Made by a program: the position numbers and the translations under genes. A stretch of DNA of 64,000 bases, taken from UHGV virus genome UHGV-0311442. The stretch is one strand, 5' to 3'. Below, one piece after another: positions 2,699-57,331 of the stretch (positions are counted from its first letter, which is position 1; every line of letters starts with the position of its first letter). The notes beneath the pieces are model-generated. The model did not search any database, was not told the origin of the DNA, and saw only the letters and a list, made by a program, of their open reading frames with translations. This DNA is from a virus.

Positions 2699-4318
2699 TT
2701 ATGGGTTCTTTAATAACGCTTGCGTTGCACGTTTAATCACGTTGTTGATAGGATTGATTTTAAAGTTCCCATCAGAATCGAACCAGTAGTTTTTCGAGTG
2801 TATCCAATTCCGGTTTTCCTCGAGCGCTTCCTGGGACATAGGCGCGTTAAACGACCCGGTATCGCCGTCGTAGTCACCCCCTAAGCCACCTAGACGTGAG
2901 GGGTGTGGTGCCATAGACTCAACGAAGGTAGGAACCGACCGGTCAGGGTAGCTGATAGCCCCTCGGGGTTTTTCAGTTTCCCAGTCATCTTCCAGTTCTT
3001 TTAAGTATAAAGATGACGTGGTGGTCTCCAATCTTATGGTCGATGAATACGTCGAGCCTCGGCCTGTAACGGGATAACGTGTAACGAAACCGAAATAATC
3101 GTTCCAAAGTTCGTAGCCCGACAAATAAAGCAATTCGACGAGCGTCATACCGTGGACGAATTTTCGGTCAAACGTTTTAGGAAGTTCTTCAATATCGTAG
3201 AACACCTTAAAATGTTTGGTGTCTTGGTAAACCAACGCAACGTAGTGGGTGTCGTCCAACATAATCGGTTGATGGCGAAGCTCGCGAGCTTCCATTCGGT
3301 TGATTAAGGATTCAATCCCATCGTCGGTGGTAAAGGTGTCGTATACACGACCACCTACTTCCAAGAATTCACGTTTAAGGGTTTTGGTGTTTACGCCGTA
3401 AAGGTTGCCGTCACCAGCACGGATGTTACCGAGGTAACGTTCACGTATCTGGTATTGGGCGACAGGGAGTAATGCTTTTAAACCCTGGTATAAACCAATT
3501 TTGGTGTCGGTGGGACGAATAGCGTCTTCACGACCCATGCACTTAGACCCCGTCGAGAACGAGGACAGTACGTTACGTGTCCCGTTCATTAATTTACGAG
3601 ACGTCACTTTACGACGTTGGAAACCCCCTTTACCGTCTTGGATGTTAAAGAAATACATCCAGATATCGTTGAAGGTTTGTTGCAGCTTCCAGCGTACGGG
3701 GTTAGTTAATTCAACACGGGTTGCTCGGTCAGGGATCGCTCTGGCGAGTGATACCAACCGACGATACATCCCGCCGATTTCTTCTTCCTGCTCTCTACCA
3801 TCTTGTCGAATTACTAAATCGCGTAAACCCGCGGGTAACACGAGAACGTATCGACTAAGACTAACGGGACGGAATTTCAAAAAGAAATCCACGGTTTCGT
3901 CACGTTGTAGGGACTCGTTACGCTTAGGTTTTAAATCGTTATAGTGACTGAGGAAGAAGTTAAAACCGGTATCTGCGCCTGGGTCTCCCGGCAAGGCCGG
4001 TTCGAAATCTTTTTCTTTTTCGCTCCACGTTGCGTAGCGTTTTCCAGAACAAATTTCTTCGTAGAGTTGTTTGAGTTGGAATAACGCCAAACACACCGTC
4101 GGCGAAATGATATCGAGTTTAATATCGATATAAGAGAAAGTAGAGTCTCGCGCTTCACTCCCCGTGAGTCCAAATATCTCTGTAGAGTAAAGACCTTCGG
4201 GGTGAAAGTTTTTTGTTAACCCCTGGAAAGTATCCGTGGTCGTGACGGGTCGTAATCGCGACACAAGAGACTTGTTTACATTGAGCAGATAAAAGTCAAC
4301 CCAATTAAGTTTATTCAC
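2699..4318 (-). CDS. Multisubunit RNA polymerase beta-prime-like subunit, N-terminal fragment (split gene)
   Basis: 539 aa, GTG start with AGGAG 8 nt upstream. Contains GGDYDGD (compare beta-prime NADFDGD catalytic loop), preceded by RYPVTGRGSTYSSTIRL and N-terminal EIFG...IDIKLDIISPTV resembling beta-prime regions. No zinc finger. Confidence 0.6.
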   Translation of the reverse strand: MNKLNWVDFYLLNVNKSLVSRLRPVTTTDTFQGLTKNFHPEGLYSTEIFGLTGSEARDSTFSYIDIKLDIISPTVCLALFQLKQLYEEICSGKRYATWSEKEKDFEPALPGDPGADTGFNFFLSHYNDLKPKRNESLQRDETVDFFLKFRPVSLSRYVLVLPAGLRDLVIRQDGREQEEEIGGMYRRLVSLARAIPDRATRVELTNPVRWKLQQTFNDIWMYFFNIQDGKGGFQRRKVTSRKLMNGTRNVLSSFSTGSKCMGREDAIRPTDTKIGLYQGLKALLPVAQYQIRERYLGNIRAGDGNLYGVNTKTLKREFLEVGGRVYDTFTTDDGIESLINRMEARELRHQPIMLDDTHYVALVYQDTKHFKVFYDIEELPKTFDRKFVHGMTLVELLYLSGYELWNDYFGFVTRYPVTGRGSTYSSTIRLETTTSSLYLKELEDDWETEKPRGAISYPDRSVPTFVESMAPHPSRLGGLGGDYDGDTGSFNAPMSQEALEENRNWIHSKNYWFDSDGNFKINPINNVIKRATQALLKNP

Positions 4319-16268: not shown

Positions 16269-16297
16269 TTTATCGTTCCTTTTAGTTAAGTGGTAGT

Positions 16298-23384: not shown

Positions 23385-23412
23385 AATTCACTCCTAAAGA
23401 ATGTCTCACGTA

Positions 23413-23423
23413 GATAATATCTG
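23413..23423. promoter_or_regulatory. Copy of recurrent AT-rich motif GATAATATCTG in a divergent intergenic region
   Basis: Same motif recurs at 32529-32539, 42021-42031, 50241-50257 and 54527-54543, always in non-coding or gene-end positions. Confidence 0.3.
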
Positions 23424-23455
23424 TCTGACTTCTTTTTGAAATTGAGGTAGTAAGA

Positions 23456-32500: not shown

Positions 32501-32536
32501 TTTAATAACTCCAATGGTGTTACACCTGGATAATAT

Positions 32537-33205
32537 CTATCTAAGAATATTTTTAGCGAAAAAAGGATCGACTGTAAACTCCTTCACCTGTGAGTCATAA
32601 CCCGAATGTATTTGATCGCTACTGAGCAAATACTGGTCTAAATCGTGCGGAAGAATCCAAGAATCGCCTTGCTTAAAAATACCATAATCTGCTGTTCCTG
32701 CGGAAAAAATGATTTCCTCTGGAAACGAATAGATGTGGCGTAAGGCAAGATCGGATGGCTTTAACACGATTAATCGAACGGGATGTTGACTGACTGCCTC
32801 TTTAATAAACTGTTCACGATTAAACCAAATTATTTTTTCGGGGTAAGTTTCGAATTCAGCCCATGTCCGCGTGATAACTAATTTGGAAATCTTTCTCAAT
32901 TCTTCAGAATGCTCTGCGTAGCCAATACACTCCTTGCGTACTTCATGATTTTCTACCGATGCTGTGAATTTTTGGAATAGGTGTTGTTGGAAAAAGCCGT
33001 TCTCCGGGATATCACAACCCGCGTTGTATAGTGCAATGATCTCCCACAACAACGAAAGAGAAAACACAAATGCTAACTTTTCCACCACTTCCCAATCTTC
33101 GGAGTAAGGGGCTTTAAAGCCCCAATACTGCCGTGCGTTATACATAAAGTGAGTTTGTAAAAACCGGGGGGCTTTTGACAAGACCTCACTATAAACGATC
33201 AGCAT
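32537..33205 (-). CDS. Hypothetical protein (222 aa)
   Basis: ORF overlapping the upstream RNase H fusion gene by a few nt. Confidence 0.5.
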   Translation of the reverse strand: MLIVYSEVLSKAPRFLQTHFMYNARQYWGFKAPYSEDWEVVEKLAFVFSLSLLWEIIALYNAGCDIPENGFFQQHLFQKFTASVENHEVRKECIGYAEHSEELRKISKLVITRTWAEFETYPEKIIWFNREQFIKEAVSQHPVRLIVLKPSDLALRHIYSFPEEIIFSAGTADYGIFKQGDSWILPHDLDQYLLSSDQIHSGYDSQVKEFTVDPFFAKNILR

Positions 33206-41233: not shown

Positions 41234-41955
41234 AGGGTAACTCCTCTATTGATTGGAAAACTCGTGTTTATCGTATCCCAAATTTTACTAACTTCCGCCA
41301 ATTGAATCTGACGTGGTGTTTTCTTCGCAAACGCAAGCTGACGTGGGGCCGAGCCCACAACAACAGGCACATCGATTTTCGCGCTATAGAACGCGGCGTC
41401 TTTCATAAAGCCTGCCATTTCTCGTTGTGCTGCTCGAGATTTGCTTTTGATTCGCGTGTGAGCGCCACTTTCACCCCAGTGGTAAGCTAACGCAACTTCA
41501 GCCATGGTGGGCTTGCGTTTGAGTCGTTTGGTTAACCCCTTTTCAAGATGTTTAACATACGCGGCAGCCAGCAAAACAGCATTACGCGGATTATACAAAT
41601 CGGCGTTCTGACTAAGACCTAATTCTTTTCCATAAAGCCTTAGCAGATTACGCTTGGTACTTGGAAGCATCTGTACCAGGCTGTGTGCTCGTGAGCTTTT
41701 GTTGTAAGCCTTGGGATCAAAACGCGATTCACGATAAATCAGCGTAATCATCAGCTTAGGATCAACGCCTTGCTTTCGAGAGATTTCCACAATTAACGGG
41801 CTGACTTTTTCGAACCGATGTTGGATTTGTGTAAACTCACGCTGATGCTTAGATTGCGGCGTTGATGTTGACGCCTGTGCGTTAAACGCGAAAAGTGTTA
41901 CCAGTAAAAGAAAGAAGATACGAAACATTTTGTTTCTCCAGTTGGATTTATACAT
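41230..41955 (-). CDS. Secreted or signal-anchored soluble lytic transglycosylase; endolysin candidate
   Basis: N-terminal hydrophobic segment MFRIFFLLLVTLFAFNAQA, then SLT motif LIYRESRFDPKAYNKSSRAHSLVQMLPST. Start may be the internal Met at about 41928. Confidence 0.6.
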   Translation of the reverse strand: MYKSNWRNKMFRIFFLLLVTLFAFNAQASTSTPQSKHQREFTQIQHRFEKVSPLIVEISRKQGVDPKLMITLIYRESRFDPKAYNKSSRAHSLVQMLPSTKRNLLRLYGKELGLSQNADLYNPRNAVLLAAAYVKHLEKGLTKRLKRKPTMAEVALAYHWGESGAHTRIKSKSRAAQREMAGFMKDAAFYSAKIDVPVVVGSAPRQLAFAKKTPRQIQLAEVSKIWDTINTSFPINRGVTL

Positions 41956-42020
41956 TTCCGTATTCCGTAAGACGAAATGACGGCGCGGACAGCTAATACT
42001 CCTTTGTTGTGTGCCCTAAT

Positions 42021-42031
42021 GATAATATCTA
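42021..42031. promoter_or_regulatory. Copy of recurrent motif GATAATATCTA
   Basis: Overlaps the stop of the macro-like gene, upstream (in minus orientation) of the lytic transglycosylase gene. Confidence 0.3.
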
Positions 42032-42589
42032 TTTAAAAGAGTTTGGAATTAATGACTCTGCTTCTCGGTACAGCTTATCGGGTAAGTATAACGTGTAGTG
42101 TTGTCTCCTCGGTTCAAGTTTTTTGTAAAGCCACAAAAAGATTTCTTGTCTTTCCCAGGAATCTAACCACCCATTTGCCATCCCCAGTGGAGGGATAGCA
42201 ACGCTGGTATCCAGTTCCTCAACACAATCTGCTAATGCGGTAATGCCCGCAGTAACATAAGAAACCTGGGACTTTAAACGCCAATGTGTTTTCGTTGGGA
42301 GCAAGATGCACTTTTCATCAGGGTAAACGTAAACGCTTCCAATCTTAATTTCGTCTTCGCGACACCGCTTACGGTAATCTTGATAAAGGTTGGGGTAGCG
42401 TTCACGGCACGCCAGTGCAATACCGCGACCCATCGCTCCTACGCAGTTAATGGTAACGACTTTATAGTCTTCGGGCGCATTAAAAAGATCGTTACCAATT
42501 TCAGATTCTTTACGTACCGTTAACATAACGAAACGCCCGGAGTTGATGTGTAGTATTAAAACGTGTACCGCCGATTGATAACTCGACAA
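42029..42589 (-). CDS. Macro-domain-like protein (putative ADP-ribose binding or processing)
   Basis: YKVVTINCVGAMGRGIALA fits the Gly-rich macro loop pattern and SVAIPPLGMANGWLD fits the second macro motif; probable start at internal Met near 42526. Confidence 0.4.
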   Translation of the reverse strand: MSSYQSAVHVLILHINSGRFVMLTVRKESEIGNDLFNAPEDYKVVTINCVGAMGRGIALACRERYPNLYQDYRKRCREDEIKIGSVYVYPDEKCILLPTKTHWRLKSQVSYVTAGITALADCVEELDTSVAIPPLGMANGWLDSWERQEIFLWLYKKLEPRRQHYTLYLPDKLYREAESLIPNSFK

Positions 42590-46694: not shown

Positions 46695-46772
46695 ACCCAC
46701 CTCCATAAAGACGGAGTGTGGTGTAAAAAGAAAAAAATAAAGAAAGGGAGAACCCGAAGGTTCTCCCAAACG

Positions 46773-47381
46773 TTATTTGGTGTACAGGTGATAACCCATT
46801 GAAGTCCAATAATCGACGTTCTTCGTGTTTTCTACCCAAACCTGTCCCGCCTTTGTGGCTAAGACTTCCATTGTCAATGTACAGATCAGATTTGTTACCG
46901 GGATACAATTTCCAGGTGTAACATCATCCAGATAAACCGGATATAAAAACGGCGATTTAATGGATTGGTACGGGTAAGAATAGTGGCTACCGACCTTCCA
47001 CCCTTCTTCTACAGGACAGAGATTAAAAGTGCGTGTTTCAGGAACTGCGTTTTCAGAGATCCAGTTAACAACATCGGCTTTAATTCGATCGTGGTCGATA
47101 TAGTAGAACACAACACGTTGTGGGATACTTGTGGTACCAGCCGGGTCTAAAGCCTCCAACGCCTTAAAAGGCGACGTTAACAATGTTGTACTGTTCTCAA
47201 GCGCGTAAACCAACTTTTCGTAAGCAGTCGGTGTTTTACGTTTAAAATATTCCCGTAAGCGAGGGTATGCCAGGAAGCCCTCTACTTCTTCTTCCATTAA
47301 GTCAATGAATAAAGGCGTATGCGAAAAGCGTTCTGCATTTTGCATCGCTTCAAGAAAACGAACTAATGTAATTTCGTTCAT
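46773..47381 (-). CDS. Hypothetical protein (202 aa)
   Basis: ORF upstream of the Rad50-like gene; no metallophosphatase motifs. Confidence 0.5.
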   Translation of the reverse strand: MNEITLVRFLEAMQNAERFSHTPLFIDLMEEEVEGFLAYPRLREYFKRKTPTAYEKLVYALENSTTLLTSPFKALEALDPAGTTSIPQRVVFYYIDHDRIKADVVNWISENAVPETRTFNLCPVEEGWKVGSHYSYPYQSIKSPFLYPVYLDDVTPGNCIPVTNLICTLTMEVLATKAGQVWVENTKNVDYWTSMGYHLYTK

Positions 47382-47401
47382 CTGGTCTTTCCTTTTAGAT
47401 C

Positions 47402-47430
47402 AAAAAAAGAAGCCCCGAGTAAACGGGGCC
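47402..47430 (-). terminator. Rho-independent terminator (minus strand)
   Basis: Stem GCCCCG/CGGGGC, loop AGTAAA; A-run on the plus strand upstream. Confidence 0.55.
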
Positions 47431-47437
47431 GGGCTAA

Positions 47438-47914
47438 TTACAGCCCTAAGTGCGTGAGTGATAAAATAGGTTGTGTTTCACCTTTAATCGTCGCGAAGGA
47501 ACGATACATTTCTGCGTTACTTGAAAAAACTTCGTTAGCAACGATACATTCACCCGTCTCTAAAGAAAGGAGATAAATGTAGTCGCTCCATACGCTTTGT
47601 ACCAACACCCACTCAAGTGCGGTATCATTTTCGCGTGTTGTTCGCAGGTGGTGAAAGTAAGGACGGATTGCATCAACTGCCGCATTAAAACGACGGTGAT
47701 AAATTCGGGTTAAATCAAAGGTCCAGATTGTTTCCAGGTCGACTGGATGTAGTGTGCGCACCGTTTCGATAATTGTCGACTGATCATTAAGGCGCGAGGC
47801 TTCGGCGATACGCAGCAGTTTCCAGGCCACCGTTAAGTTGTGGCGAATTTGTTCAGGTTTAGCCGACAGGTCATGATGAAATTGCGCAGCTTGGTAAACG
47901 TTAGATAATTGCAT
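47438..47914 (-). CDS. Hypothetical protein (158 aa)
   Basis: ATG with AAAGGAG upstream. Confidence 0.5.
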   Translation of the reverse strand: MQLSNVYQAAQFHHDLSAKPEQIRHNLTVAWKLLRIAEASRLNDQSTIIETVRTLHPVDLETIWTFDLTRIYHRRFNAAVDAIRPYFHHLRTTRENDTALEWVLVQSVWSDYIYLLSLETGECIVANEVFSSNAEMYRSFATIKGETQPILSLTHLGL

Positions 47915-47942
47915 TTTAATACTCCTTTAGGTAAACATGTCG

Positions 47943-47971
47943 TAAAAAGGACCCCGGACGTACCGGGGTCA
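47943..47971 (-). terminator. Rho-independent terminator (minus strand)
   Basis: Stem GACCCCGG/CCGGGGTC, loop ACGTA; A-run on the plus strand upstream. Confidence 0.55.
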
Positions 47972-47980
47972 AGACTACAC

Positions 47981-48370
47981 TCAATGATCTAATTCAATAG
48001 CACCAGCCATCTTGCCCCGTTCTTCGATAACAATCAGATAACGGTCGCGAGATTTGCTTTTAGCGAGAGTTAAGACAACAGTAGGGTCGCATGTTTTCGT
48101 GGTGATAGGAAGAACCTCTCTTTCGACGGAATCGAGCAGAAAGTAATAACCTGCGGGACACATTGTGCCACCGTCAGCTTTTACCAGAATATAGCGCCCG
48201 TCTGCGCCGACTTCTTGGCAGATTGTTTCACCGACTTCGCAAACTTCAAACCCCGGAGGATTGTACTGATAATCGGTATTGTTGTTTGGGGTTAGCAGTA
48301 AATCGTTAACTTGAGTAGATGCTGCTACACTCAGGGAGAAGAAGAATGCTAAAACGCAGACGAGACGCAT
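47981..48370 (-). CDS. Secreted Cys-containing protein S1 (129 aa)
   Basis: Signal peptide MRLVCVLAFFFSLSVAAS; CEVGETICQE and GRYILVKADGGTMC match S2. Confidence 0.55.
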   Translation of the reverse strand: MRLVCVLAFFFSLSVAASTQVNDLLLTPNNNTDYQYNPPGFEVCEVGETICQEVGADGRYILVKADGGTMCPAGYYFLLDSVEREVLPITTKTCDPTVVLTLAKSKSRDRYLIVIEERGKMAGAIELDH

Positions 48371-48380
48371 GAGTTACTCC

Positions 48381-48791
48381 TTAAATTTTAAGTTTATCCA
48401 TAGCTACAACGATAGGTTTTTCCGAAGTGTCTAATATCCCTACCATTGGCACACCATCTACGACTTCGAAGAATGGTTTGTTATTACCAGAGCATAGACG
48501 TTTGTCGTTGTATTCGAGACGTTGGGCCTTCCACGTTTCGAGGTTGAGTACAGACATTGGGCTGTCGTAGCACCAGGCACCACCTTGCTCAACGATGAAT
48601 ACGTATCTGCTACCTTTGTATTTAAACAGACTCTTCGCCTGACAGTACAACCCGTCAATTTCCGTACAATAGAAATCATCGGTGCTATTGACGTATTTAA
48701 TATTGTCTGGCAACTGAATCGTCTTTGCTGTAGCGTTGACAGAGAACAGAACAGCCATTGCAATGAGAAGAGTGTTGATGATAGTTTTCAT
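48381..48791 (-). CDS. Secreted Cys-containing protein S2 (136 aa), paralog of S1
   Basis: Signal peptide MKTIINTLLIAMAVLFSVNATA; CTEIDGLYCQA and SRYVFIVEQGGAWC match S1. Confidence 0.55.
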   Translation of the reverse strand: MKTIINTLLIAMAVLFSVNATAKTIQLPDNIKYVNSTDDFYCTEIDGLYCQAKSLFKYKGSRYVFIVEQGGAWCYDSPMSVLNLETWKAQRLEYNDKRLCSGNNKPFFEVVDGVPMVGILDTSEKPIVVAMDKLKI

Positions 48792-48802
48792 GATAAAAGT
48801 CC

Positions 48803-49288
48803 TTAGTATTTAGATTGTTCTACGTATTTCTTAACCAGGTAAGCGAATTCAGCAACACCGATATCACCGAACCAAATCAGGTAACCGGGGTCGATGTTGT
48901 AGTAATAGCCGACGAGTTTCTTGGTGTGTGGGTTGTATAGCGTTACGATGTATTCCCAACCACAAGCGTTAGCTTTACAACCGCCGCTTTCAATCCAGAT
49001 TTTGTTGTTGATATTTACCGGATACATGTTACCGCCAGGGCCATCCATGTAACCTTTAGAGCCGAACATACCATCCAGTCCCACAGGGTCTAGTGTTTTA
49101 TCAACAACGGCTTTAAACGACTTATCGGTATCGTACAAGTCGTTGATGTTTGGGCACGCATTTGGCTGACCTTCCCAAGCGTTTCCATCGCAGGTAAGCA
49201 ATTCGTCTACGGAGGCCGCATCTACAGTTGGCGTGGCACCGATAAACAAGAAAACCAGAAAGAACATCAGTGTATGTAAACGTTTCAT
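48803..49288 (-). CDS. Secreted protein S3 (161 aa) with CKxxxC disulfide-loop motif
   Basis: Signal peptide MKRLHTLMFFLVFLFIGATPTVDA; GGCKANACGWEYIV weakly recalls the Ivy CKPHDC loop context. Confidence 0.5.
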   Translation of the reverse strand: MKRLHTLMFFLVFLFIGATPTVDAASVDELLTCDGNAWEGQPNACPNINDLYDTDKSFKAVVDKTLDPVGLDGMFGSKGYMDGPGGNMYPVNINNKIWIESGGCKANACGWEYIVTLYNPHTKKLVGYYYNIDPGYLIWFGDIGVAEFAYLVKKYVEQSKY

Positions 49289-49306
49289 TGTAACTACTCC
49301 TTTAGA

Positions 49307-49699
49307 TTATTCGGCAGGACGATTTAAGGTAACGCGTCCGATTAATTCGGCGTTGTGAAAGAAGTCCACAGCGGTATAATTACCAACGGATAATGGGTGA
49401 ATACTAACTGACATTACTTTCGGTTGTTCGCAAGCAATATCGGTTAGACGTTGGTAGACTTGCGCACGGGTGTCAGCAATGAGTAACCCCGTACACGCTT
49501 CACCACGCACTAAACGATAAACTTGCAGTTTACCGAAACTGCGCATTAACGTAGGCGTCTCATCCGGGTTGATAATCGGTGAGTCAGGAGCCGGTTCGTA
49601 ATAGCGGACATCCGAATCACCGAAAGCATAAGTGCCAGTAATTCCGACCGCACAGAAAATAATGATAGTATAAAGTATAGTTCTGATATTCATTTTCAC
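49307..49699 (-). CDS. Secreted protein S4 (130 aa)
   Basis: Signal-peptide-like N-terminus MKMNIRTILYTIIIFCAVGITGTYA; two Cys in mature part. Confidence 0.5.
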   Translation of the reverse strand: MKMNIRTILYTIIIFCAVGITGTYAFGDSDVRYYEPAPDSPIINPDETPTLMRSFGKLQVYRLVRGEACTGLLIADTRAQVYQRLTDIACEQPKVMSVSIHPLSVGNYTAVDFFHNAELIGRVTLNRPAE

Positions 49700-49721
49700 G
49701 CACTCTAAAAAAGATTAATAG

Positions 49722-50183
49722 TTATTTGTTAGGACGGGTGTGCCCACAGTTTTGGAAGAAAGTTTCAGATAAACGATCGCCTTCTACGGTAAAGTTAGCG
49801 GCATCGTTACCATTGATACTCACACTGAAAGTTTTGGCATTACCGATAGCATTAACGAAAGCAACCCAAGCGTGTTCTGCCTTGTCACTACCGTCCACGG
49901 TAGGGATGTTATAGGTTTTGCCGTTTACGACAATATCCATCGTGTTATCTTCAGCGTTAGTTGCACCTACGGGTTCCCCGTAATACCAAACCATGCGACC
50001 GTAAAATTTGCGATTCGCAGTTTCAGTGTCACAGTTGATAGACAGTCCGTTTCCGGCGGTGTCTTCAATTTCGTAAACTGCCTGGCCAGGGTTTTGTATT
50101 TGTTCCCAGCTGTTGATAGCGGCGTGTGCAGTATTGAAACCGATTACGAAAAGGGCGATTAAAAAGGAAGTGAAGATTTTCAT
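49722..50183 (-). CDS. Secreted protein S5 (153 aa)
   Basis: Signal peptide MKIFTSFLIALFVIGFNTAHAA; first gene of the secreted-protein run. Confidence 0.5.
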   Translation of the reverse strand: MKIFTSFLIALFVIGFNTAHAAINSWEQIQNPGQAVYEIEDTAGNGLSINCDTETANRKFYGRMVWYYGEPVGATNAEDNTMDIVVNGKTYNIPTVDGSDKAEHAWVAFVNAIGNAKTFSVSINGNDAANFTVEGDRLSETFFQNCGHTRPNK

Positions 50184-50232
50184 TGTTTTGCTCCTTTATG
50201 GCGTTAATGTATAAAGAGTTAATCGTAACTCT

Positions 50233-50257
50233 CACCTAAGTAATATATATCTGAAAT
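50233..50257. promoter_or_regulatory. Conserved 25-mer CACCTAAGTAATATATATCTGAAAT upstream of the secreted-protein operon
   Basis: 23 of 25 positions identical to CACTTAAGTAAAATATATCTGAAAT at 54519-54543; reverse complement contains TATATTAC. Confidence 0.4.
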
Positions 50258-50277
50258 TATTTTTAATATTAACGAAC

Positions 50278-50310
50278 AAAAAATAAAAGGTGGGGGTAAA
50301 CCCCCACCGA
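50278..50310 (-). terminator. Rho-independent terminator (minus strand)
   Basis: Stem GGTGGGGG/CCCCCACC, loop TAAA; A-run on the plus strand upstream. Confidence 0.65.
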
Positions 50311-50312
50311 TG

Positions 50313-50891
50313 TTATACATCGAACCGGTACTGCCGGGAGTTAATGAGGAACTCGGTATTCAGCTCAATCCATTCGAGTAAATCACCCAACGGTAATCGG
50401 TTTGGGTTTTCTAACTCAATAGACGCTACCGGATAAGAGTTTACTAATTCCGTAATTGCCTCAATACCCTCTTGCGTTCCGTCGTCTTCTAAGGTGATTG
50501 TAAACGGCATATCGGTACGATCCGCATTAGGATTGTACAAACTGACTTTCGTTGCTTGGACAAACGCAGTCAGGTCGTCACGTATAATGCGTGTATCAGG
50601 CGCTAGAACTACCCAGAGATGTTGTCCTGGCTGGAGTTTACGTTTTGCGTAGTTTAAGAACGGGTTAGCCGGTAAGCTTTCCAAACCACTGCAAATGTTC
50701 CGTAAATGAATCCCTCGTGGGTCTTTATAGTCCACGCTGAAGATTCCTACCGGTTCCTTCGCTGCCTGTTTTATCAGAAAGACCAATACCGTGTCCGCTC
50801 TTTCTGGTAAGGAAAGCTCTATTCCCTCAAGCTCCCCATCGACGAGGTTTTCCAACCAAACGTCTTTTCGCATTTCTATTAATCGGTACAC
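50313..50891 (-). CDS. Hypothetical protein (192 aa)
   Basis: ORF with ATG start. Confidence 0.5.
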   Translation of the reverse strand: MYRLIEMRKDVWLENLVDGELEGIELSLPERADTVLVFLIKQAAKEPVGIFSVDYKDPRGIHLRNICSGLESLPANPFLNYAKRKLQPGQHLWVVLAPDTRIIRDDLTAFVQATKVSLYNPNADRTDMPFTITLEDDGTQEGIEAITELVNSYPVASIELENPNRLPLGDLLEWIELNTEFLINSRQYRFDV

Positions 50892-50903
50892 GGTACCACC
50901 TCA

Positions 50904-51677
50904 CTATTGATTAAGTTTTACATCGGCAATAAACAGCAATTGTTTACCATGTTGCTGCACTTCTTTCCAACCTAGTTTCATAGCAGCGTCAACAACATCT
51001 AACATGCTGTAACGGGACATCAACGCGGTTGATTTTGTTCCTGACATTAAATAAAGCGGCTCATTAGGGCAACGGTCTCGAGCATCAGGAAGTTCTCGAA
51101 TAACCGCTGAGCCTTCGGGTGCGGTAACAACGTGAATCACGGTAAATGGTCTCTTATGCGTTAAATAGATACGAAATCCAACGTGTTCAGATTCATGAAA
51201 GATTTTCTTCACAACCACATCTTTTAGTGTTGTCTGAACATCATCCCCAGGTAATATCGTGGATTCACGAGAAACGAAACAACGACTATTTTCAATCGTG
51301 GAGAAATAATTACGTATCGGCAAACTGGCGTTATGATCGCGCAGTTTTTTGCTCAATAGATCGAAGTTCAGTTCTTTAACTTTTTCTAACCACTCTTTGG
51401 CTTGTTGAATGTAATAACTACCAACAGCGCGATAAGTTAATACCTTACCTGTGCTCACTTTCCAAAGCTTGATGCTTAGTGAATTTGGCTTATAGCGACG
51501 ATACTCACCCTGCGTATGGTTGATGCGCTCGTAACGCTCTACATCATCAACTGGTGCAGATTCGACCGATTGTAATTGCAGCGTACGATCTAATCTATCG
51601 GCAAATAGTAGTGATGATAGCGGGCCTTCGATCATATACGGTTCGGTTTTAAAGATATCGTCTAAATGGACTTTCAT
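50904..51677 (-). CDS. Paralog family member 1 (257 aa) with C-terminal GW...QLLF(I/V)AD module
   Basis: C-terminus AAMKLGWKEVQQHGKQLLFIADV; N-terminus MKVHLDDIF matches member 4 (MKELLDDIF). Confidence 0.55.
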   Translation of the reverse strand: MKVHLDDIFKTEPYMIEGPLSSLLFADRLDRTLQLQSVESAPVDDVERYERINHTQGEYRRYKPNSLSIKLWKVSTGKVLTYRAVGSYYIQQAKEWLEKVKELNFDLLSKKLRDHNASLPIRNYFSTIENSRCFVSRESTILPGDDVQTTLKDVVVKKIFHESEHVGFRIYLTHKRPFTVIHVVTAPEGSAVIRELPDARDRCPNEPLYLMSGTKSTALMSRYSMLDVVDAAMKLGWKEVQQHGKQLLFIADVKLNQ

Positions 51678-51689
51678 TTCTATTTCCTT

Positions 51690-51720
51690 CTTAACAAAAG
51701 CCGCGACTAAAGCGCGGCAG
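51690..51720 (-). terminator. Rho-independent terminator (minus strand)
   Basis: Stem GCCGCG/CGCGGC, loop ACTAAA; A-rich run on the plus strand upstream. Confidence 0.5.
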
Positions 51721-51744
51721 TTAGAGAAAGTGTAGTTTCACTTA

Positions 51745-52896
51745 TTAAAGGTCAGCAACAAACAGCAGCTGACTGCCGTACGGTTCGACAGATTTCCAAC
51801 CGTAATCTTTACCGATCGTCGTTAGATGGCCGGTATTTAACTTTTTGTCAACCATCCGCAGACGCATCATTAGCGTATTGGATTCTGCCGCATCGAGTAA
51901 CAACGCAGGTTCTTTTTCAGTGCGGTCATCCGCTTTCGGGAAGAAACTGTAATACTGACTTTTGGGCAGTTCGATTGTCAACGTATAGTTTTTCTTTGTA
52001 ATGAATAACGCCATCCCTTCGAAATTACAATCGAAACGATATTCCCAACCCGCCTCGGCTAAAACGTCTTTTAGCATTTCCATGACTTTAAGCTGGTTAA
52101 CGCTAGGCAGTCGGTAAGCTGCAAGGTTACTTGGAAATATGCGTATACCGTCGACGACACTATCGGTGGTTTCGTCAATAAGTTCAGGATAACGTTGCGA
52201 GAAAATATGATCGCTCTTGCTTTTCTCTTCGATGTCACGAATGAATTGGGCTATTTCGTCTCTTAAGCCAGACACTTGATTTTCTCCTTCGACTTCAATA
52301 ATCTGGTGGGGTTCGCCGCTAATTAAAATGTGGTAAACGATGTCGTCGGTAGAACGGTAAGTGAGTTTGATAGCTTTATCACTTAACATTTCGTAGCGGA
52401 AGAAACTTTCGTACCAAGTTGACCCGAAATCGTTTCGTGTAAGTTCCTGCTCAACTTTGATGGTTTTTGCTTCAAAACCAATTAACCCACTTAATAACGC
52501 GTGTTCTGGTTTAGTTAAAATGTTCGCACCGTGAAAGGGCACTTTCTCAAGCTGAAAACATAAATTACTGACTTTACCACTTGGGAAGACCTTAAACATA
52601 ATCTTCCGGCTGCTACTCTTTTCCCTAACAACGAGTTTACGGTAATTTAGTCCACAATTTGTGTAAACCGCGAACTTGTAACCTTCAATTTCTTCATCGT
52701 AAGTACAGACATCGACAGGTGCGATAATCTCATTGTATTCAGTAAGTACACAGCAGCCCAAGTTATAACCAAACAACTCACGTTGTAATGAAGATTCGAT
52801 GGTTAAGCTTGGTAGTGACCAAGTCCGATTATAGCATCTGTCCATCAGTTCTTTTAGGATCTTGGCATGTCCTGGCTTAGAAATAATATTTCGCAT
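51745..52896 (-). CDS. Paralog family member 2 (383 aa), module present twice
   Basis: C-terminus GKDYGWKSVEPYGSQLLFVADL plus internal AEAGWEYRFDCNFEGMALFITKK. Confidence 0.55.
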   Translation of the reverse strand: MRNIISKPGHAKILKELMDRCYNRTWSLPSLTIESSLQRELFGYNLGCCVLTEYNEIIAPVDVCTYDEEIEGYKFAVYTNCGLNYRKLVVREKSSSRKIMFKVFPSGKVSNLCFQLEKVPFHGANILTKPEHALLSGLIGFEAKTIKVEQELTRNDFGSTWYESFFRYEMLSDKAIKLTYRSTDDIVYHILISGEPHQIIEVEGENQVSGLRDEIAQFIRDIEEKSKSDHIFSQRYPELIDETTDSVVDGIRIFPSNLAAYRLPSVNQLKVMEMLKDVLAEAGWEYRFDCNFEGMALFITKKNYTLTIELPKSQYYSFFPKADDRTEKEPALLLDAAESNTLMMRLRMVDKKLNTGHLTTIGKDYGWKSVEPYGSQLLFVADL

Positions 52897-52926
52897 TTTT
52901 ACTCTCCTTTAGGGTTTTTTTGTTAC

Positions 52927-53481
52927 TTAAGCAGGGTAAGCTAAAAACAACAACTGCTGGCCGAGTTTACGTACAGTATACCAACCGTGGGCTTTAGCGA
53001 CCGCGATCAACGTTTCCCAGTCATCAACATCACACTGCTCATTCCGAAGTCTTGTAAAGAGTGCCTCGGCTTCGCTTTGGTTTAATAACTTACCTGGGTT
53101 GTCTGGGGTGCAGTCAGTAGGGGTTGGAAAGAAAGTATACTGACGCGCTAGGAGAAAATCGACCAGATACTTGGTATTTTCTTTATAAACCAGCGTGGAA
53201 GACTTTCCTTCGTGGAAGAAGCTGCCTGTTTTCCAAGCGCTATCCCCCAGTAAGCTCTGAAGGTAATCTGTAAAGCCCGTTCTGAAAGGGATATGGTTTT
53301 TACGTGTGATGTTACGACGCAGCGGGGTTTCCTCTACAGCTTGTACACCCACCCCTACTATCATCGCACCTGGCTGAATAATGCTATTGGTCAGTACGGT
53401 ATAAGGACGGACAAAGAAATGTTCGCCTACGCCTTTTTCAAGGGTTTGGATAATTTCATTTTTCAGTTCAGTTTGAAACAT
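52927..53481 (-). CDS. Paralog family member 3 (184 aa)
   Basis: C-terminus AVAKAHGWYTVRKLGQQLLFLAYPA. Confidence 0.55.
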   Translation of the reverse strand: MFQTELKNEIIQTLEKGVGEHFFVRPYTVLTNSIIQPGAMIVGVGVQAVEETPLRRNITRKNHIPFRTGFTDYLQSLLGDSAWKTGSFFHEGKSSTLVYKENTKYLVDFLLARQYTFFPTPTDCTPDNPGKLLNQSEAEALFTRLRNEQCDVDDWETLIAVAKAHGWYTVRKLGQQLLFLAYPA

Positions 53482-53510
53482 GGTATATTCTCCTTTTTCG
53501 GTTTTCTTAA

Positions 53511-54248
53511 TTACGCGGTTTTAATTAACAGCAGATAGTCCTTCGTAATCTCAGCACAACCCCACCCTCTCATCGCGGCGATTTTACGAAGATCAATTTT
53601 CTCGTGATATCTCAATAAGGGATCGCCTGAGTTAATCTCAACCAGGTGTGTGGCTTTAGAAATCGTTTCTACATCAGGGATCTGTTTTGCTAAGTCGGAT
53701 GCAATTAACTCGATGATACGGTATCCCTCTAACACAGAAACATAGATGCGCAAACCATATAGCGTGCCTTCGTCTTCTAATGGACAAAGATCGATGCCGG
53801 GTCCAAGCAGTGATAACTCGACGTTATCGGGAAGGTTTTCTGCATTTCGGAGTAACCCTATCCCATTTCTAAACAGAGGGAAGTAAGAGAATAGTGGTGG
53901 TAAAGCCCAACCGTTCCCAATAAGCACATCAGCGATACTCGTAGGTGTGTTCGCAAGAAGACGAATGTGGTCAGCCACAACTTCAAGTTCGGCGTCACTG
54001 ATCAACTTATAGATTAACATGACACTGGTTTCGGTATTAATAACAAAGAAGACGCGGTTGGCGTAACTGCCTATCACGTATTCGTCAATCATACAGTCGA
54101 TAACGTCACTGTCTGGATAATCTTCAGGTTTAATTGTTCCAGCATCGATTAACTTAGCAGGTTGCGATTGTTTTATTAGTTCGTTAACCACCGTAGAAGA
54201 AAGTTCTAAACTGGTGTTGGTAAAGATATCGTCTAATAATTCTTTCAT
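53511..54248 (-). CDS. Paralog family member 4 (245 aa), degenerate module
   Basis: C-terminus AAMRGWGCAEITKDYLLLIKTA; N-terminus MKELLDDIF matches member 1. Confidence 0.5.
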   Translation of the reverse strand: MKELLDDIFTNTSLELSSTVVNELIKQSQPAKLIDAGTIKPEDYPDSDVIDCMIDEYVIGSYANRVFFVINTETSVMLIYKLISDAELEVVADHIRLLANTPTSIADVLIGNGWALPPLFSYFPLFRNGIGLLRNAENLPDNVELSLLGPGIDLCPLEDEGTLYGLRIYVSVLEGYRIIELIASDLAKQIPDVETISKATHLVEINSGDPLLRYHEKIDLRKIAAMRGWGCAEITKDYLLLIKTA

Positions 54249-54340
54249 GATTTACTCGCTAATCCCAATGAAGGGAAGGCTATTATTATGGATTGTAAAA
54301 GAGGTATAAGGAAGTCACTACGTTCCTCTGGGAAGAGTAT

Positions 54341-54410
54341 GTCGGTATACTCCGTATACCTCCGCTATTTATATCCGTATACATAATGCCCCCTACCCCC
54401 TACCGGTATC
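54341..54410. promoter_or_regulatory. Cluster of GTATAC-containing palindromic repeats in a 320-bp divergent intergenic region
   Basis: CGGTATAC (54343-54350), CCGTATAC (54352-54359 and 54375-54382), CCGGTATC (54403-54410); ACATAATG occurs twice (54381-54388, 54431-54438). Confidence 0.4.
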
Positions 54411-54487
54411 CCGAGTAGCAGAATAAAGGGACATAATGTAATTTTTAGTAACCTTTAACGAAAGGTACTAAAAGGGTAACGTGTCCG

Positions 54488-54517
54488 TAGGGACTGAACT
54501 GGTACTTCAGTCCCTAT
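54488..54517. promoter_or_regulatory. Stem-loop in the divergent intergenic region
   Basis: Inverted repeat GGGACTGAA/TTCAGTCCC with 7-nt loop, just upstream of the conserved 25-mer. Confidence 0.35.
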
Positions 54518-54518
54518 T

Positions 54519-54543
54519 CACTTAAGTAAAATATATCTGAAAT
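54519..54543 (+). promoter_or_regulatory. Conserved 25-mer CACTTAAGTAAAATATATCTGAAAT, candidate promoter element for the plus-strand gene at 54569
   Basis: Near-identical copy of the element at 50233-50257; ends 25 nt before the ATG at 54569. Confidence 0.4.
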
Positions 54544-54568
54544 CAATTCCGATCTAAGGAACGTCCCG

Positions 54569-55534
54569 ATGGAGAAATCCAGTGTTGATTTTTTCTCAAT
54601 TGGTATCGTCGCGGAAGACAAACCCCGTGGTACAGATCGGGTAAAAGTGATACCAATTGAAACTAACTTTGCTAACCCTACCGTGGTGCAATCTGTTTCT
54701 TCAGCAACTGAAAAGACGCATGAAACGTCTGGTGCAACAGATAACCTAACCATTAAGACGGGTAACACGATAACAGCAAAGTGGTGGAAGTTTAACTCCA
54801 ACCGAATTAATTCCCCTGACGTTAAACGAGAAGACTACGTTATCTTGTTACGTTTGGGGAAAACCGATATTTATTTTTGGATTGATCTGAACTTCGCTAA
54901 CGTTAAGCGATTAGAAGATGCGGTTTATGCGTGGTCGGCTGACCCTGAAAACCAAATGGCGGATGACTTGTCCAATGCGTATGTGTTGAACGTTTCGACG
55001 ATTGACAAACATATCACGCTAAGAACAAGTATGGTGAATGGCGAGAAAGCGGCGTGGTTGTTTCAGTTTGATAATGCAAACGGTACGTGGCAGTGCGTTG
55101 ACCATAAAGGAAACAAGTATTACATTAACTCGGTTGAAGATGATCTCGGGTTTGAGAATGCGATGCTTTCAAAAGTGAACATCAACAAAGAAGATGCGTT
55201 CATTTATTCAAAGCGTTCTATTAACCTGGAAACGAAAACGATTAATGAAAAATGCGAAGTTCGCAATACAGAAGCAGCGAAATCCGTTACGTTTAAAACA
55301 CAAACCTGGTTAACGGAAGCGGGAAGTTCGACAACGTTTAAAACGCCGAACTTTAAACAAGAAGGGAAGGAAGCGATGTTCACCGGTAATTTGGAAATCG
55401 CTAAGAACTTCAAATACGGTGGTACGGGTGAAGGTGTGGGTGTCTTTACGGTTAAAGATGCTGTTATTTCCGGTATTACCTTTAGCGTTCACATTCACCA
55501 AGGTAAACATGGTCCGACATCACCTCCGCAATAA
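54569..55534 (+). CDS. Hypothetical protein, probable tail-module component (321 aa)
   Basis: Plus-strand ORF with ATG start and AAGGAACG upstream, at the edge of the tail-fibre gene block. Product unknown. Confidence 0.5.
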   Translation: MEKSSVDFFSIGIVAEDKPRGTDRVKVIPIETNFANPTVVQSVSSATEKTHETSGATDNLTIKTGNTITAKWWKFNSNRINSPDVKREDYVILLRLGKTDIYFWIDLNFANVKRLEDAVYAWSADPENQMADDLSNAYVLNVSTIDKHITLRTSMVNGEKAAWLFQFDNANGTWQCVDHKGNKYYINSVEDDLGFENAMLSKVNINKEDAFIYSKRSINLETKTINEKCEVRNTEAAKSVTFKTQTWLTEAGSSTTFKTPNFKQEGKEAMFTGNLEIAKNFKYGGTGEGVGVFTVKDAVISGITFSVHIHQGKHGPTSPPQ

Positions 55535-55740
55535 TTCCCCTTTTTCTTACGTTGTTTTTATATATTGTGACCTGACGTTGGTAAAACTTTTTATCAACAC
55601 TTTTCTTAAACCCATCGTTTAGTTAAGCAGGCCACTTTTTTCGCGCACTCTACTCCTCCCTACGGGGAGGAGCTATCTTATGCTTCGGTTGTAACACACG
55701 TCGGTCTTAGACCACCTTCCTTTTGAAATGGAGAGCTGTT

Positions 55741-55950
55741 ATGTCTATTAAAGAGTTCTCTTCTGCTGAGCATATTCCAGAAGAGTTTAAGAAAATCGGT
55801 AACGTTAGCGCCTTCGGCGATACCGTTGATCATGTAACTGGTAAGCTGGCTGCTGAAGCCGAAAAAATTGGCGGCGACGCATTCAAAGTTATCGGTATTT
55901 CCGGCAACAACAAACTGCACGGTAACGCGATTGTCTACAAAAAAGACTAA
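55741..55950 (+). CDS. BhsA/YcfR-like (DUF1471 family) small protein lacking a signal peptide
   Basis: 69 aa, ATG at 55741 (track start 55723 is TTG). GGDAFKVIGISGNNKLHGNAIVYK closely resembles the BhsA C-terminus GAKSFRITSVTGPNTLHGTAVIYK; in-frame stop 30 nt upstream excludes a leader. Confidence 0.55.
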   Translation: MSIKEFSSAEHIPEEFKKIGNVSAFGDTVDHVTGKLAAEAEKIGGDAFKVIGISGNNKLHGNAIVYKKD

Positions 55951-55951
55951 G

Positions 55952-56010
55952 CGAAAAAAAAACGTGCTACTCCTACCCTCTAAGAGGGTAGGAGGTTACT
56001 TTATTTTTTT
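55952..56010. terminator. Bidirectional rho-independent terminator
   Basis: Stem CTCCTACCCTC/GAGGGTAGGAG, loop TAA, A-run upstream and T-run downstream. Confidence 0.75.
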
Positions 56011-57263
56011 CGTGCTCTAAAGCGATGCATTTCTAAATACACTTTTTCCCAGGGACCGAATGGACCAACGATTGCTTGAGCATCGTTAATCTTCTTCTGA
56101 TTATACCACCGGGCTTCACGAAAGACGTAGTTTTGACTGTCGAATTCGGTGGTGTTAAATACCCACTCACCTTCCTCCCACGTAGGCCAATAACCTACCG
56201 TCTTACCAAATCGATTATTTAAGTACCCTAATGGTTTTTCAGAATCAGGATCGTTAGGGTCCTTGAGATAACAACGTCCCCAAACTGCGTTATGGGATAC
56301 ACCCACAACCTCTTCTTCTAAATACGGATTATCTACCGTAAAGATAAAAGAGGATTCGTGGAGTAAAAGTGCCTTTAATGTTTCGGGGTTGCGAATACGT
56401 TGGACATTAGTAGGTGTTGATAAATCCCCCACACCGATGGCGTCCCAGTCGTAATAGCGACGGGTTTCCAGAACGGTCCGTGCAAGATCAAAATTCGGTA
56501 AAGAAATCATGATAGCACGGTCGGAGAAATAACCGCCCGGGGGCAACCAACGTAACATCCCGCCTATGACGAAACCCACGGTTTTTCCCGTAATAGATTC
56601 GGGCAGCGATATCATTAACGTAGAGTAATAGTCGCGTGTAGTGTCGAGCTTGTTTAGGGTAAGGTTGGCAATGGGGTAAGTTTTAACATTCCCTAACTGA
56701 CCAAAAACCATACAACCAATATCTGGCGTACAGGCTCTCCGTACGATTTTACCGGCCCCGGGTAATCGCACACCTACGGTATCCGTCTGGTGTGGTACCC
56801 ACTGACCGTTGATGTTGTAGAGCACACTATTACGGTATTTGTCCTTCCACTTGTCCTCACAAACGACGACAACGTCATCAGCATCGTCTAAGCTGAAATC
56901 TTGACTGTGATGGTACCCCGGCGGACACAGATATGTCTCGACAGGCACATCGGCATTAATTGATTGGTAGTGTGCCCAACTGAATTCCAGTTTCGGCAAT
57001 CCGGCCTTTAGAGTGGGGATGACGTTTCCGGCTTTTTCATTTAACCAATCTTGTAAAGTGTCTGTTCGGTTTTGTAGTTCGGCAAGATGGTATTGACTGA
57101 CTAACGTATAGTCTTTACCAAGTGCACTTAAACCGATCTCAAAGGTGTGGTAGTCTGAACACAACGTATTTAAGGGTTGCGTGACATCGATGGCTCCCCA
57201 GGTACGGGACTCTCGAGAGAAGCCAAAAGCGCTGTCGGGCCGCACTTGATAAGCAGTAGTCAC
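56001..57263 (-). CDS. Hypothetical protein, possible baseplate or tail component (420 aa)
   Basis: Long ORF divergent from the tail-fibre-like genes. Product unknown. Confidence 0.55.
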   Translation of the reverse strand: MTTAYQVRPDSAFGFSRESRTWGAIDVTQPLNTLCSDYHTFEIGLSALGKDYTLVSQYHLAELQNRTDTLQDWLNEKAGNVIPTLKAGLPKLEFSWAHYQSINADVPVETYLCPPGYHHSQDFSLDDADDVVVVCEDKWKDKYRNSVLYNINGQWVPHQTDTVGVRLPGAGKIVRRACTPDIGCMVFGQLGNVKTYPIANLTLNKLDTTRDYYSTLMISLPESITGKTVGFVIGGMLRWLPPGGYFSDRAIMISLPNFDLARTVLETRRYYDWDAIGVGDLSTPTNVQRIRNPETLKALLLHESSFIFTVDNPYLEEEVVGVSHNAVWGRCYLKDPNDPDSEKPLGYLNNRFGKTVGYWPTWEEGEWVFNTTEFDSQNYVFREARWYNQKKINDAQAIVGPFGPWEKVYLEMHRFRARKK

Positions 57264-57331
57264 AGCTCTTTTCCTCTATAGATTCAAGTCATAGTATGAA
57301 CTTCGACGCCCACGGACTATAGGAGTAGAGA

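Follow-up and report, generated by a model that had tools for sequence, protein, structure and literature searches.

We conclude, with a probability of roughly 85%, that five short sites in the window analyzed here, the whole 64,000-nucleotide stretch of UHGV virus genome UHGV-0311442, are early promoters of a phiKZ-related jumbo phage (Chimalliviridae type) and that all five fire leftward. Promoter elements of this kind have already been described; here they occur in a previously unannotated phage. The sites share a motif with published early promoters, occupy a consistent strand and position relative to genes, are conserved in synteny, and occur in a window that also encodes a subunit of a virion RNA polymerase (vRNAP). 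A literature search turned up no transcript data, either on this phage or on other phages of the SPN3US or Erskinevirus type, and for this reason the exact transcription start sites (TSSs), the early timing, and the identity of the polymerase proposed below are extrapolated by analogy with phiKZ, 201phi2-1, and AR9.

Two of the sites are the near-identical 25-mers CACCTAAGTAATATATATCTGAAAT at 50233-50257 and CACTTAAGTAAAATATATCTGAAAT at 54519-54543, which are identical at 23 of 25 positions, as an initial sequence-only reading of this DNA had reported. A degenerate scan of the window allowing up to three mismatches found these two copies and no third, compared with 0.00 expected from 100 dinucleotide shuffles. 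The remaining three sites carry the 10-mer GATAATATCT, which occurs three times in the window (23413, 32529, and 42021), always on the plus strand, versus 0.11 expected; none of 100 shuffles gave three copies, and significance is lost when one mismatch is allowed (6 copies versus 3.3 expected). The recurrent core proposed in the sequence-only reading therefore stands in that three exact copies are far above expectation, but the 25-mers do not include the literal 10-mer. The register implied by that proposal was 2 nt off: a gap-free alignment pairs AGATATTATC on the minus strand with ATATATTACT of the 25-mers, and the core sites, rather than sharing a sub-motif in the earlier register, form a distinct subclass with an GATATTAT core within the same promoter family. 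In the minus-strand reading, the five sites can all be aligned gap-free to TTTCAGAYAKATATTAYYTAGGTG, the two 25-mers being a strong, near-consensus subclass (class A) and the three core sites a looser one (class B). All five are on the minus strand, each upstream of a minus-strand gene, and none is inside a coding body. With ~90% of the window coding, they are intergenic or run into the upstream gene by just its final 10 nt. The motif search that had been named as a check, run over the 64-kb window, likewise found no copies in coding bodies.

The suggestion that these are AT-rich early promoters of the phiKZ kind, with TATATTAC in the reverse complement, was borne out by comparison with published consensus strings. 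The early promoters of phiKZ comprise 28-32 sites with an AT-rich consensus containing TATATTAC and are read by the virion RNAP. Consensus strings are available for N1M2, OBP, 201phi2-1, and phiKZ (PMC7058600 Table 2), and the minus-strand reading of our sites agrees with all four (PMC7058600). The strings of Pseudomonas phage OBP (BSHAWWWWWTTTYARRYAKATATTATYWWADTG) and Klebsiella phage N1M2 (TBYAWWWWWTTTCARRYAKATATTATYWAAGTGWA) are themselves bioinformatic predictions. Applied without modification to both strands of the window, the 33-nt OBP string has exactly the five sites as its five best matches (3-4 mismatches), and the unmodified 35-nt N1M2 string matches four of the five at 5-6 mismatches. 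The 201phi2-1 string (TTTRARR_BTATATTACDWHDGTG) comes from ONT-cappable-seq, in which only six such promoters were mapped; the motif lies ~10 bp upstream of mapped TSSs and has conserved -10, -20, and -30 regions. Class-A sites match this string at 2-3 mismatches, differing from it by a C in place of R at the fourth position of TTTRARR. In Bacillus phage AR9, early promoters were mapped by dRNA-seq and primer extension and are chloramphenicol-independent, with the experimentally mapped consensus AAATATATATTAT-6N-G(+1) (PMC5312081). The six best matches of this consensus in the window include the five sites, at 1-3 mismatches, with three unrelated sites tied at 3. The AT core and the 6-nt spacing to a conserved G are common to AR9 and the window sites; AR9 differs, however, in its uracil DNA, in not being nucleus-forming, and in having neither the TTTCAG nor the GGTG flank. 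Papers found by searching the literature for the literal motif strings were all unrelated.

The TATATTAC core of phiKZ is shared exactly at site 1 and with one change at site 2, and as in phiKZ the sites lie between genes and face the same way as operons of small hypothetical genes. Compared with phiKZ, the conserved region is longer, extending over ~35 nt with TTTCAG and TTAGGTG, and is closer to the OBP/N1M2 form. The KATATTATY core of OBP and N1M2 is present exactly in the class-B sites, whereas the 25-mers have C rather than T after ATATTA, as in phiKZ and 201phi2-1. With a position weight matrix (PWM) trained solely on Erwinia phage phiEaH2, the five sites score 26-49.5 and are the only matches in the window; the highest score among 20 shuffles was 15.4. 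This PWM and the unmodified published strings are the independent tests of the motif, the consensus pattern used for mismatch counts and for the phiEaH2 scan having been adjusted at two positions after the sites were seen.

Initiation is predicted at a G located 7 nt after the core, because the mapped AR9 consensus (ATATATTAT-6N-G(+1)), from which TSS positions were derived, sets +1 on the conserved final G of the sites. Among 52 class-A copies retrieved from IMG/VR, the predicted +1 is G in 98%, at a position that the search pattern left unconstrained; the IMG/VR class-B set is contaminated by 14 copies that share one unrelated context, which weakens comparison of the two classes. Site 1 (class A; TTTCAGATATATATTACTTAGGTG; 50233..50256, minus strand) has TATATTAC at 50240-50247 and a predicted TSS at its last G, 50233. 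It shows no mismatches to the consensus pattern, has a PWM score of 49.5 (shuffle maximum 15.4), is the best match of the OBP, N1M2, and 201phi2-1 strings, and is identical to one phiEaH2 copy over 42 of 42 nt. Site 2 (class A variant; TTTCAGATATATTTTACTTAAGTG; 54519..54542, minus strand; predicted TSS 54519) has TATTTTAC at 54526-54533, one mismatch to the consensus pattern, and a PWM score of 34.2, and is kept with 1-3 mismatches in the relatives L007, L129, L130, L133, and L134. The three class-B sites, all on the minus strand with the GATATTAT core, are AGTCAGACAGATATTATCTACGTG (23407..23430; predicted TSS 23407; PWM 34.6), TCTTAGATAGATATTATCCAGGTG (32523..32546; predicted TSS 32523; PWM 33.1), and the weakest copy, TTTTAAATAGATATTATCATTAGG (42015..42038; predicted TSS 42015; PWM 26.0). 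Their predicted TSSs are 23 nt from the ATG of gene 22836-23384, 23 nt from the ATG of gene 31763-32500, and 60 nt from the ATG of the transglycosylase-like gene 41230-41955, respectively.

The motif and its orientation are conserved in relatives. The consensus pattern matches phiEaH2 15 times, compared with ~0.7 matches expected from the window shuffle rate scaled to genome size, and all 15 copies are on the plus strand and co-oriented with the next CDS, with TSS-to-ATG distances of 27-136 nt; the single "intragenic" match sits between two real divergent genes. Each class-B site has a syntenic phiEaH2 copy, at 116300-116323 (for 23407..23430), 107605-107628 (for 32523..32546; before gp130), and 98725-98748 (for 42015..42038; before the transglycosylase gp120), although the flanking proteins are just 40-61% identical. 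Across positions 49000-56000, DNA-level similarity to deposited phages is confined to ~40-55 nt around site 1, a stretch that matches 195 mostly unannotated places in 59 SPN3US-/Erwinia-type jumbo phage genomes. The sequence-only reading considered the orientation of the sites ambiguous; however, 5 of 5 sites in the window (on the minus strand), the phiEaH2 copies, and every IMG/VR copy with an identifiable downstream gene face that gene. Its proposal of an operator or bidirectional element also finds no support, with the plus-strand reading of the sites scoring at background.

We posit that a multisubunit vRNAP, injected with the DNA, would recognize three promoter parts, namely an AT-rich core (TATATTAC or GATATTAT) centered near -10, a TTTCAG block upstream of it, and a tract rich in A, and that transcription would then proceed leftward through operons made up mostly of small genes without known function, up to an intrinsic terminator. 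The polymerase presumed to read these promoters would contain a homolog of phiKZ gp180 encoded at 2699..4318 (minus strand; phrog_2986, E=7e-234). A tblastn search matches this ORF to phiKZ gp180, which the phiKZ record notes as "structural head protein"; the N1M2 homolog is annotated as virion-associated, and the divergent synteny with a gp181-like giant tail protein gene is as in phiKZ. This multisubunit beta/beta' type gene is the sole vRNAP subunit gene seen within the 64 kb. Upstream of site 1, an intrinsic terminator (GGTGGGGGTTTACCCCCACC followed by a T-run; 50289..50308, minus strand) ends the preceding operon ~30 nt before the promoter, a layout also found in SPN3US, phiEaH2, and IMG/VR copies. 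Downstream are seven small minus-strand genes (46773..50183), the first five products of which have signal-peptide-like N-termini, and site 1 is predicted to drive gene 49722-50183 and the small genes that follow. Class-A leaders would measure at least ~50 nt and have a stem-loop at their start, and class-B leaders would span 23-60 nt. Site 2 is atypical in that 271 nt precede the first sizeable ORF; leftward firing would produce a 271-nt structured leader followed by gene 53511..54248 (minus strand), which encodes a 245-aa protein with no family match. ORFs within this leader are 32 aa or shorter and unsupported. One class-B site precedes a transglycosylase-like gene, for which an early function is not obvious; an early promoter before a transglycosylase-like gene has likewise been reported in N1M2 (PMC7058600).

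The sequence-only reading placed site 2 at 25 nt upstream of the plus-strand gene at 54569, which encodes a baseplate-assembly (structural) protein. A role of this site as promoter or operator of that gene, whether exclusive or bidirectional, is very unlikely: the motif is close to the gene, ending 26 nt before the ATG, and its AT core is partly palindromic, but the gene lies behind the promoter, the plus-strand reading of site 2 is at background, and the intergenic region adjacent to the homologs of this gene in phiEaH2, Asesino, and JN03 lacks the motif. Closer relatives have, leftward of the site-2 promoter, a hairpin and then a small ORF preceded by a Shine-Dalgarno sequence, and the co-orientation of all phiEaH2 copies with their own downstream genes also argues for leftward firing. 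We consider it similarly improbable that the sites are binding sites of a regulator or recombination boundaries of gene cassettes. Relative L007, which is 94-97% identical, has an insertion of ~450 nt, such that gene content right after the site-1 promoter differs from that of the window and the promoters flank variable cassettes; such variation is, however, explained more simply as resulting from repetition of the promoter sequence. The strict orientation of the sites, their short and fixed distance from the start codon, and terminator-then-promoter modules are promoter-like rather than operator-like, and identity to experimentally mapped promoters is expected of promoters, not of operators.

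If the sites are promoters, the polymerase that reads them has to be considered. We regard it as unlikely that they are middle or late promoters of the non-virion phage RNA polymerase rather than of the virion enzyme. Their timing in the window phage is argued from analogy, some gene classes of 201phi2-1 do not map neatly to the expected promoter class, and one site is followed by the transglycosylase-like gene. However, phiKZ middle promoters have a weak motif (AT-rich or TACT) at around -22 to -24, and its late promoters have TATG with G at +1 (T(-3)ATG(+1)), whereas the motif here ends in GGTG, AGTG, CGTG, or TAGG and agrees with the early class over 24-35 nt; furthermore, the motif is absent upstream of structural genes, both on the plus strand of the window and in phiEaH2. 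Recognition by the bacterial RNA polymerase as sigma-70 promoters of the host is extremely unlikely. The core TATATT and TATTAC resemble a -10 hexamer with AT-rich sequence upstream, but a scan of 46000-58000 for -35 and -10 consensus hexamers 16-18 nt apart found no site at 50233-50270 or 54519-54560, and sigma-70-like sites are rarer in this interval than in shuffles (13 versus 20.4). The conserved TTTCAG block immediately upstream and the GGTG block downstream do not fit -35/-10 spacing, and host RNAP is not needed in phiKZ-type infection. Promoters of N4-type vRNAPs, which are single-subunit enzymes, are recognized through a DNA hairpin upstream of +1. We rejected this type for the window sites, where hairpins begin at or after the predicted +1 (motif positions 22-24) and the polymerase gene is of the multisubunit type.

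Assignment of these sites as vRNAP early promoters is of use mainly for annotation: it settles which strand is transcribed, where transcription probably starts, and where the boundaries of early operons lie in an uncultured jumbo phage. The SPN3US, Erwinia, and related uncultured lineages all share the ~35-nt promoter in nearly unchanged form, so in each of them it can serve to predict early genes, which are host-takeover candidates. The result leaves the picture of jumbo-phage transcription unchanged; only the 5' hairpins and a conserved leader element might lead to something new.

Class-A early transcripts are predicted to start with a stem-loop, from +1 to ~+25, in which sequence varies and pairing is kept (population statistics are based on 105 promoter copies). 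The site-1 transcript would begin with a 5'-terminal hairpin (GAGAGTTA-cgat-TAACTCTT; 50214..50233, minus strand; -6.9 kcal/mol). For the site-2 transcript, a 5'-proximal hairpin with an 11-bp stem is predicted (54488..54516, minus strand; -17.7 kcal/mol), with compensatory changes in L130, L133, and L134. Further into the site-2 leader is a conserved structured element of ~130 nt (54290..54425, minus strand). Three genera share it at the baseplate locus, and its central stem comes in three compensatory versions. We tentatively speculate that the stem-loop could act in vRNAP promoter clearance or in protection of early mRNA and that the ~130-nt element could be a cis-regulatory RNA or small RNA of SPN3US/Erskinevirus-type jumbo phages, a combination that is possible and potentially new. 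At a permissive threshold, an Rfam search of 54150-54600 gave only a chance U5 match (23 bits versus a gathering score of 40), and ARAGORN found no tRNA or tmRNA in the window. Distant-mode blastn against the phage collection returned nothing for the site-2 context or the leader element, homologs of which were found with gapped patterns in IMG/VR. Two of these pattern matches, L131 and L132, the latter tRNA-like by eye, do not have the flanks of the element and were dropped as chance matches. Two plus-strand readings of the element were also rejected: a late promoter of generic type ((T/G)ATG and then TCGG), as no other intergenic region of phiEaH2 or the window has this k-mer, and a short ORF starting at the (T/G)ATG, the frame of which is by eye not conserved between lineages. 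The ~130-nt element is also present in phages, among them phiEaH2 and SPN3US, that do not have the site-2 promoter.

The two near-identical 25-mers at 50233–50257 (site 1) and 54519–54543 (site 2) lie where the sequence-only reading had placed them, agree at 23 of 25 positions, and have no further copy in the 64 kb (degenerate search allowing ≤3 mismatches; 0.00 expected for the pair). Exact matches to the 10-mer GATAATATCT number three (0.11 expected), at 23413, 32529, and 42021, always on the plus strand; its significance is lost when one mismatch is permitted. It had been taken as a shared core, but it is not literally contained in either 25-mer, and a gap-free alignment requires shifting the proposed register by 2 nt. 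So shifted, the core-site motifs AGTCAGACAGATATTATCTACGTG, TCTTAGATAGATATTATCCAGGTG, and TTTTAAATAGATATTATCATTAGG align with the minus strand readings of site 1 (TTTCAGATATATATTACTTAGGTG) and site 2 (TTTCAGATATATTTTACTTAAGTG). On that strand the motif is the early-promoter consensus of phiKZ-related phages: TBYAWWWWWTTTCARRYAKATATTATYWAAGTGWA (N1M2, predicted), BSHAWWWWWTTTYARRYAKATATTATYWWADTG (OBP, predicted), TTTRARR_BTATATTACDWHDGTG (201phi2-1), and TATATTAC (phiKZ; all PMC7058600 Table 2). The earlier guess at a phiKZ-like early promoter was thus right in kind, as it matches these published strings. In phiKZ, 28–32 early promoters are backed by primer extension, dRNA-seq, and ONT-cappable-seq; for 201phi2-1, transcription start sites (TSSs) have been mapped ~10 bp downstream of the motif; and in AR9 the mapped early consensus is AAATATATATTAT-6N-G(+1), with transcripts that are chloramphenicol-independent (PMC5312081). 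The injected virion RNA polymerase is credited with these promoters (review PMC7598289). The five window sites are predicted early promoters of this already described class, and what is new here is only further members of it together with two side observations, on 5' hairpins and on the site-2 leader.

The source of the window is a jumbo phage. The PHROG families matched by the window ORFs cover virion structural proteins, a baseplate-assembly protein, and a beta-like RNA polymerase subunit, as well as SbcC-like, UvsX-like, and ribonuclease proteins. By protein, the closest annotated relatives are the Erwinia phages phiEaH2 and Stratton (baseplate protein 73% identical), followed by the SPN3US group (~62%); within IMG/VR, contigs L007 (94–97% identical) and L005 (93%) are close and L018 is a syntenic relative at ~70% identity. 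In a search of 49000–56000, the sole DNA-level likeness to deposited phages was a stretch of ~55–80 nt coinciding with site 1, which matches 195 mostly unannotated places in 59 SPN3US-/Erwinia-type jumbo phage genomes. In phiKZ, gp180 is a subunit of the virion RNA polymerase. Its homologue in the window, ORF 2699–4318, adjoins a giant gp181-like tail protein in the same divergent arrangement as in phiKZ; the phiKZ record notes gp180 as a structural head protein, and the homologue in N1M2 carries a virion-associated annotation.

Two positions of our first scanning pattern had been adjusted after the sites were known, and we therefore repeated the test with unmodified inputs. Across both strands of the window, the five best matches to the published OBP string are exactly the five sites (3–4 mismatches). 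The N1M2 string finds four of the five, and the experimental AR9 consensus places all five within its six best matches (three unrelated sites tie, each with 3 mismatches). A PWM trained on phiEaH2 sites alone scores the five at 49.5, 34.6, 34.2, 33.1, and 26.0, against a maximum of 15.4 over 20 shuffles, and no other window position rises above background with this PWM.

The five copies share one orientation, leftward on the minus strand. The sequence-only reading had also considered an operator or a bidirectional element, and both are contradicted by this strict orientation. It had further held that equal frequency of the motif in coding regions would count against a promoter; none of the five lies within a coding body of a window that is ~90% coding, an outcome in favor of the promoter, and two extend into the final 10 nt of the gene upstream. 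A sigma-70 promoter was rejected because a consensus scan of 46000–58000 shows no such site at site 1 or site 2, and an nvRNAP middle or late promoter because the published motifs differ and the window motif avoids structural genes.

The full phiEaH2 genome and annotation, scanned with the adjusted pattern (≤4 mismatches), yield 15 matches versus ~0.7 expected from the window shuffle rate scaled to genome size. All 15 lie on the major coding strand and are co-oriented with the next CDS, 12 are fully intergenic (the genome is 91.6% coding), and predicted TSS-to-ATG distances are 27–136 nt. The lone "intragenic" match, at 116300, falls inside annotated gp142 (record 115984–116877; 15984–16877 of comparison sequence L021). 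Because the divergent window genes 22836–23384 (−) and 23456–23920 (+) map to phiEaH2 116374–116874 (+) and 116270–115818 (−), on either side of the match and on opposite strands, with the early promoter between them, the gp142 annotation appears to be an artefact covering two real divergent genes. Three phiEaH2 sites, before the transglycosylase gene, the gp130 homologue, and the gp142 C-terminal homologue, are syntenic with the window core sites, and the flanking proteins are merely 40–61% identical between the two phages.

An IMG/VR scan with only the first 18 positions fixed returned 105 distinct contexts, in which the unconstrained positions 19–25 are conserved as T-A-G-G-T-G-A (52–74% each) and upstream positions −10 A, −8 T, and −5 A are conserved at ~77–79%, which puts the functional unit at ~35 nt. 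With the spacing seen in AR9, transcription would begin on the final G of the 24-mer, placing the predicted minus strand starts at 50233, 54519, 23407, 32523, and 42015; G occupies this position in 98% of the IMG/VR class-A copies. Motif positions 10 and 17 covary (Fisher p = 3e-10 over 105 phylogenetically non-independent contexts), defining class A, with T at 10 and C at 17 (TATATTAC; both 25-mers), and class B, with G at 10 and T at 17 (GATATTAT; the three core sites). Class A is near-invariant over at least 24 nt across distant phages and has leaders of ~50 nt; class B is looser, with shorter leaders. The two classes may be of unequal strength or timed differently.

Beginning at motif position 22, a 36-nt segment folds more stably than its shuffles (mean z: −1.34, all 105 IMG/VR copies; −1.97, class A; +0.27, a control segment farther along), and the first paired base falls at motif positions 22–24 in 71 of 105 copies. 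Stem sequences vary among copies with pairing retained. In the window, minus strand stem-loops are predicted at 50214–50233 (site 1) and 54488–54516 (site 2), at ~+1 to +25 of the predicted early transcripts, and in relatives the site-2 stem carries compensatory changes. We found no mention of 5'-terminal stem-loops in the early-promoter literature cited here.

An intrinsic terminator at 50289–50308 on the minus strand lies ~30 nt ahead of site 1. The segment 50289–50314 (−) reads GGTGGGGG-TTTA-CCCCCACC-TTTTAT and resembles the conserved phiKZ motif BCCYCCCCHWWDGGGRRGGBYTTAT (PMC10914365), except that its G and C arms have traded places. Terminator-like hairpins of the form CCCTACTCC-loop-GGAGTAGGG occur at 39149–39183 and 38544–38579; in SPN3US, phiEaH2, and several IMG/VR jumbo phages the same stem directly precedes early-promoter copies, seemingly as a terminator motif conserved in this phage group. 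The ATG of gene 49722–50183, which heads a run of small genes, is 50 nt past site 1. Five small proteins encoded at 47981–50183 (−) have signal-peptide-like hydrophobic N-termini (e.g., MKIFTSFLIALFVIGFNTAHA), in agreement with the "secreted-protein operon" that had been predicted from sequence. Directly downstream of the site-1 promoter, L007 (9531–9981, versus window 50196–50228) carries a ~450-nt insertion with an extra small gene, whose new leader resembles another promoter copy of the same contig (L002). This points to cassettes being exchanged at promoter repeats, the variation being most simply a by-product of the repeated promoter sequences.

Site 2 had been noted 25 nt upstream of the plus strand gene at 54569, the baseplate gene, but its motif faces away from that gene. 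Since the early motif was not found in the intergenic region beside the baseplate gene of phiEaH2, Asesino, or JN03, this gene is independent of it. In four closer relatives (L129, L130, L133, and L134), the site-2 promoter is followed by a hairpin, an SD-preceded ORF of ~25 aa, and the homologue of gene 53511–54248. The small ORF reads MSTEKKSGLDEVIELFKRYNPAIPR or MFAEQKDGIEEVVRLFRHYSPYLPR in L130, L133, and L134, corresponding to window ~54430–54485; L129 retains only a degraded form, and neither the window nor L007 has it. The site-2 leader (271 nt, folding z = −5.3) contains an element of ~130 nt at 54290–54425 (−) whose conservation spans three genera: the window's own lineage, Erskinevirus (phiEaH2 83870–83990, Asesino, L018), and Seoulvirus (JN03). 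Its location is the same in each, between the baseplate-assembly gene and the divergent operon, and this holds even beside a non-homologous leftward gene. The element matches no Rfam or tRNA model. It runs in the order TTAC..TTCTGCTA, two G5 runs, CGGAGGT-hairpin-ACCGACAT, and AGGAACGTAGTGAC.TCCTTAT; its central stem exists in three compensatory versions, and the leftward strand gives it the more stable consensus fold (−19.0 versus −10.7 kcal/mol).
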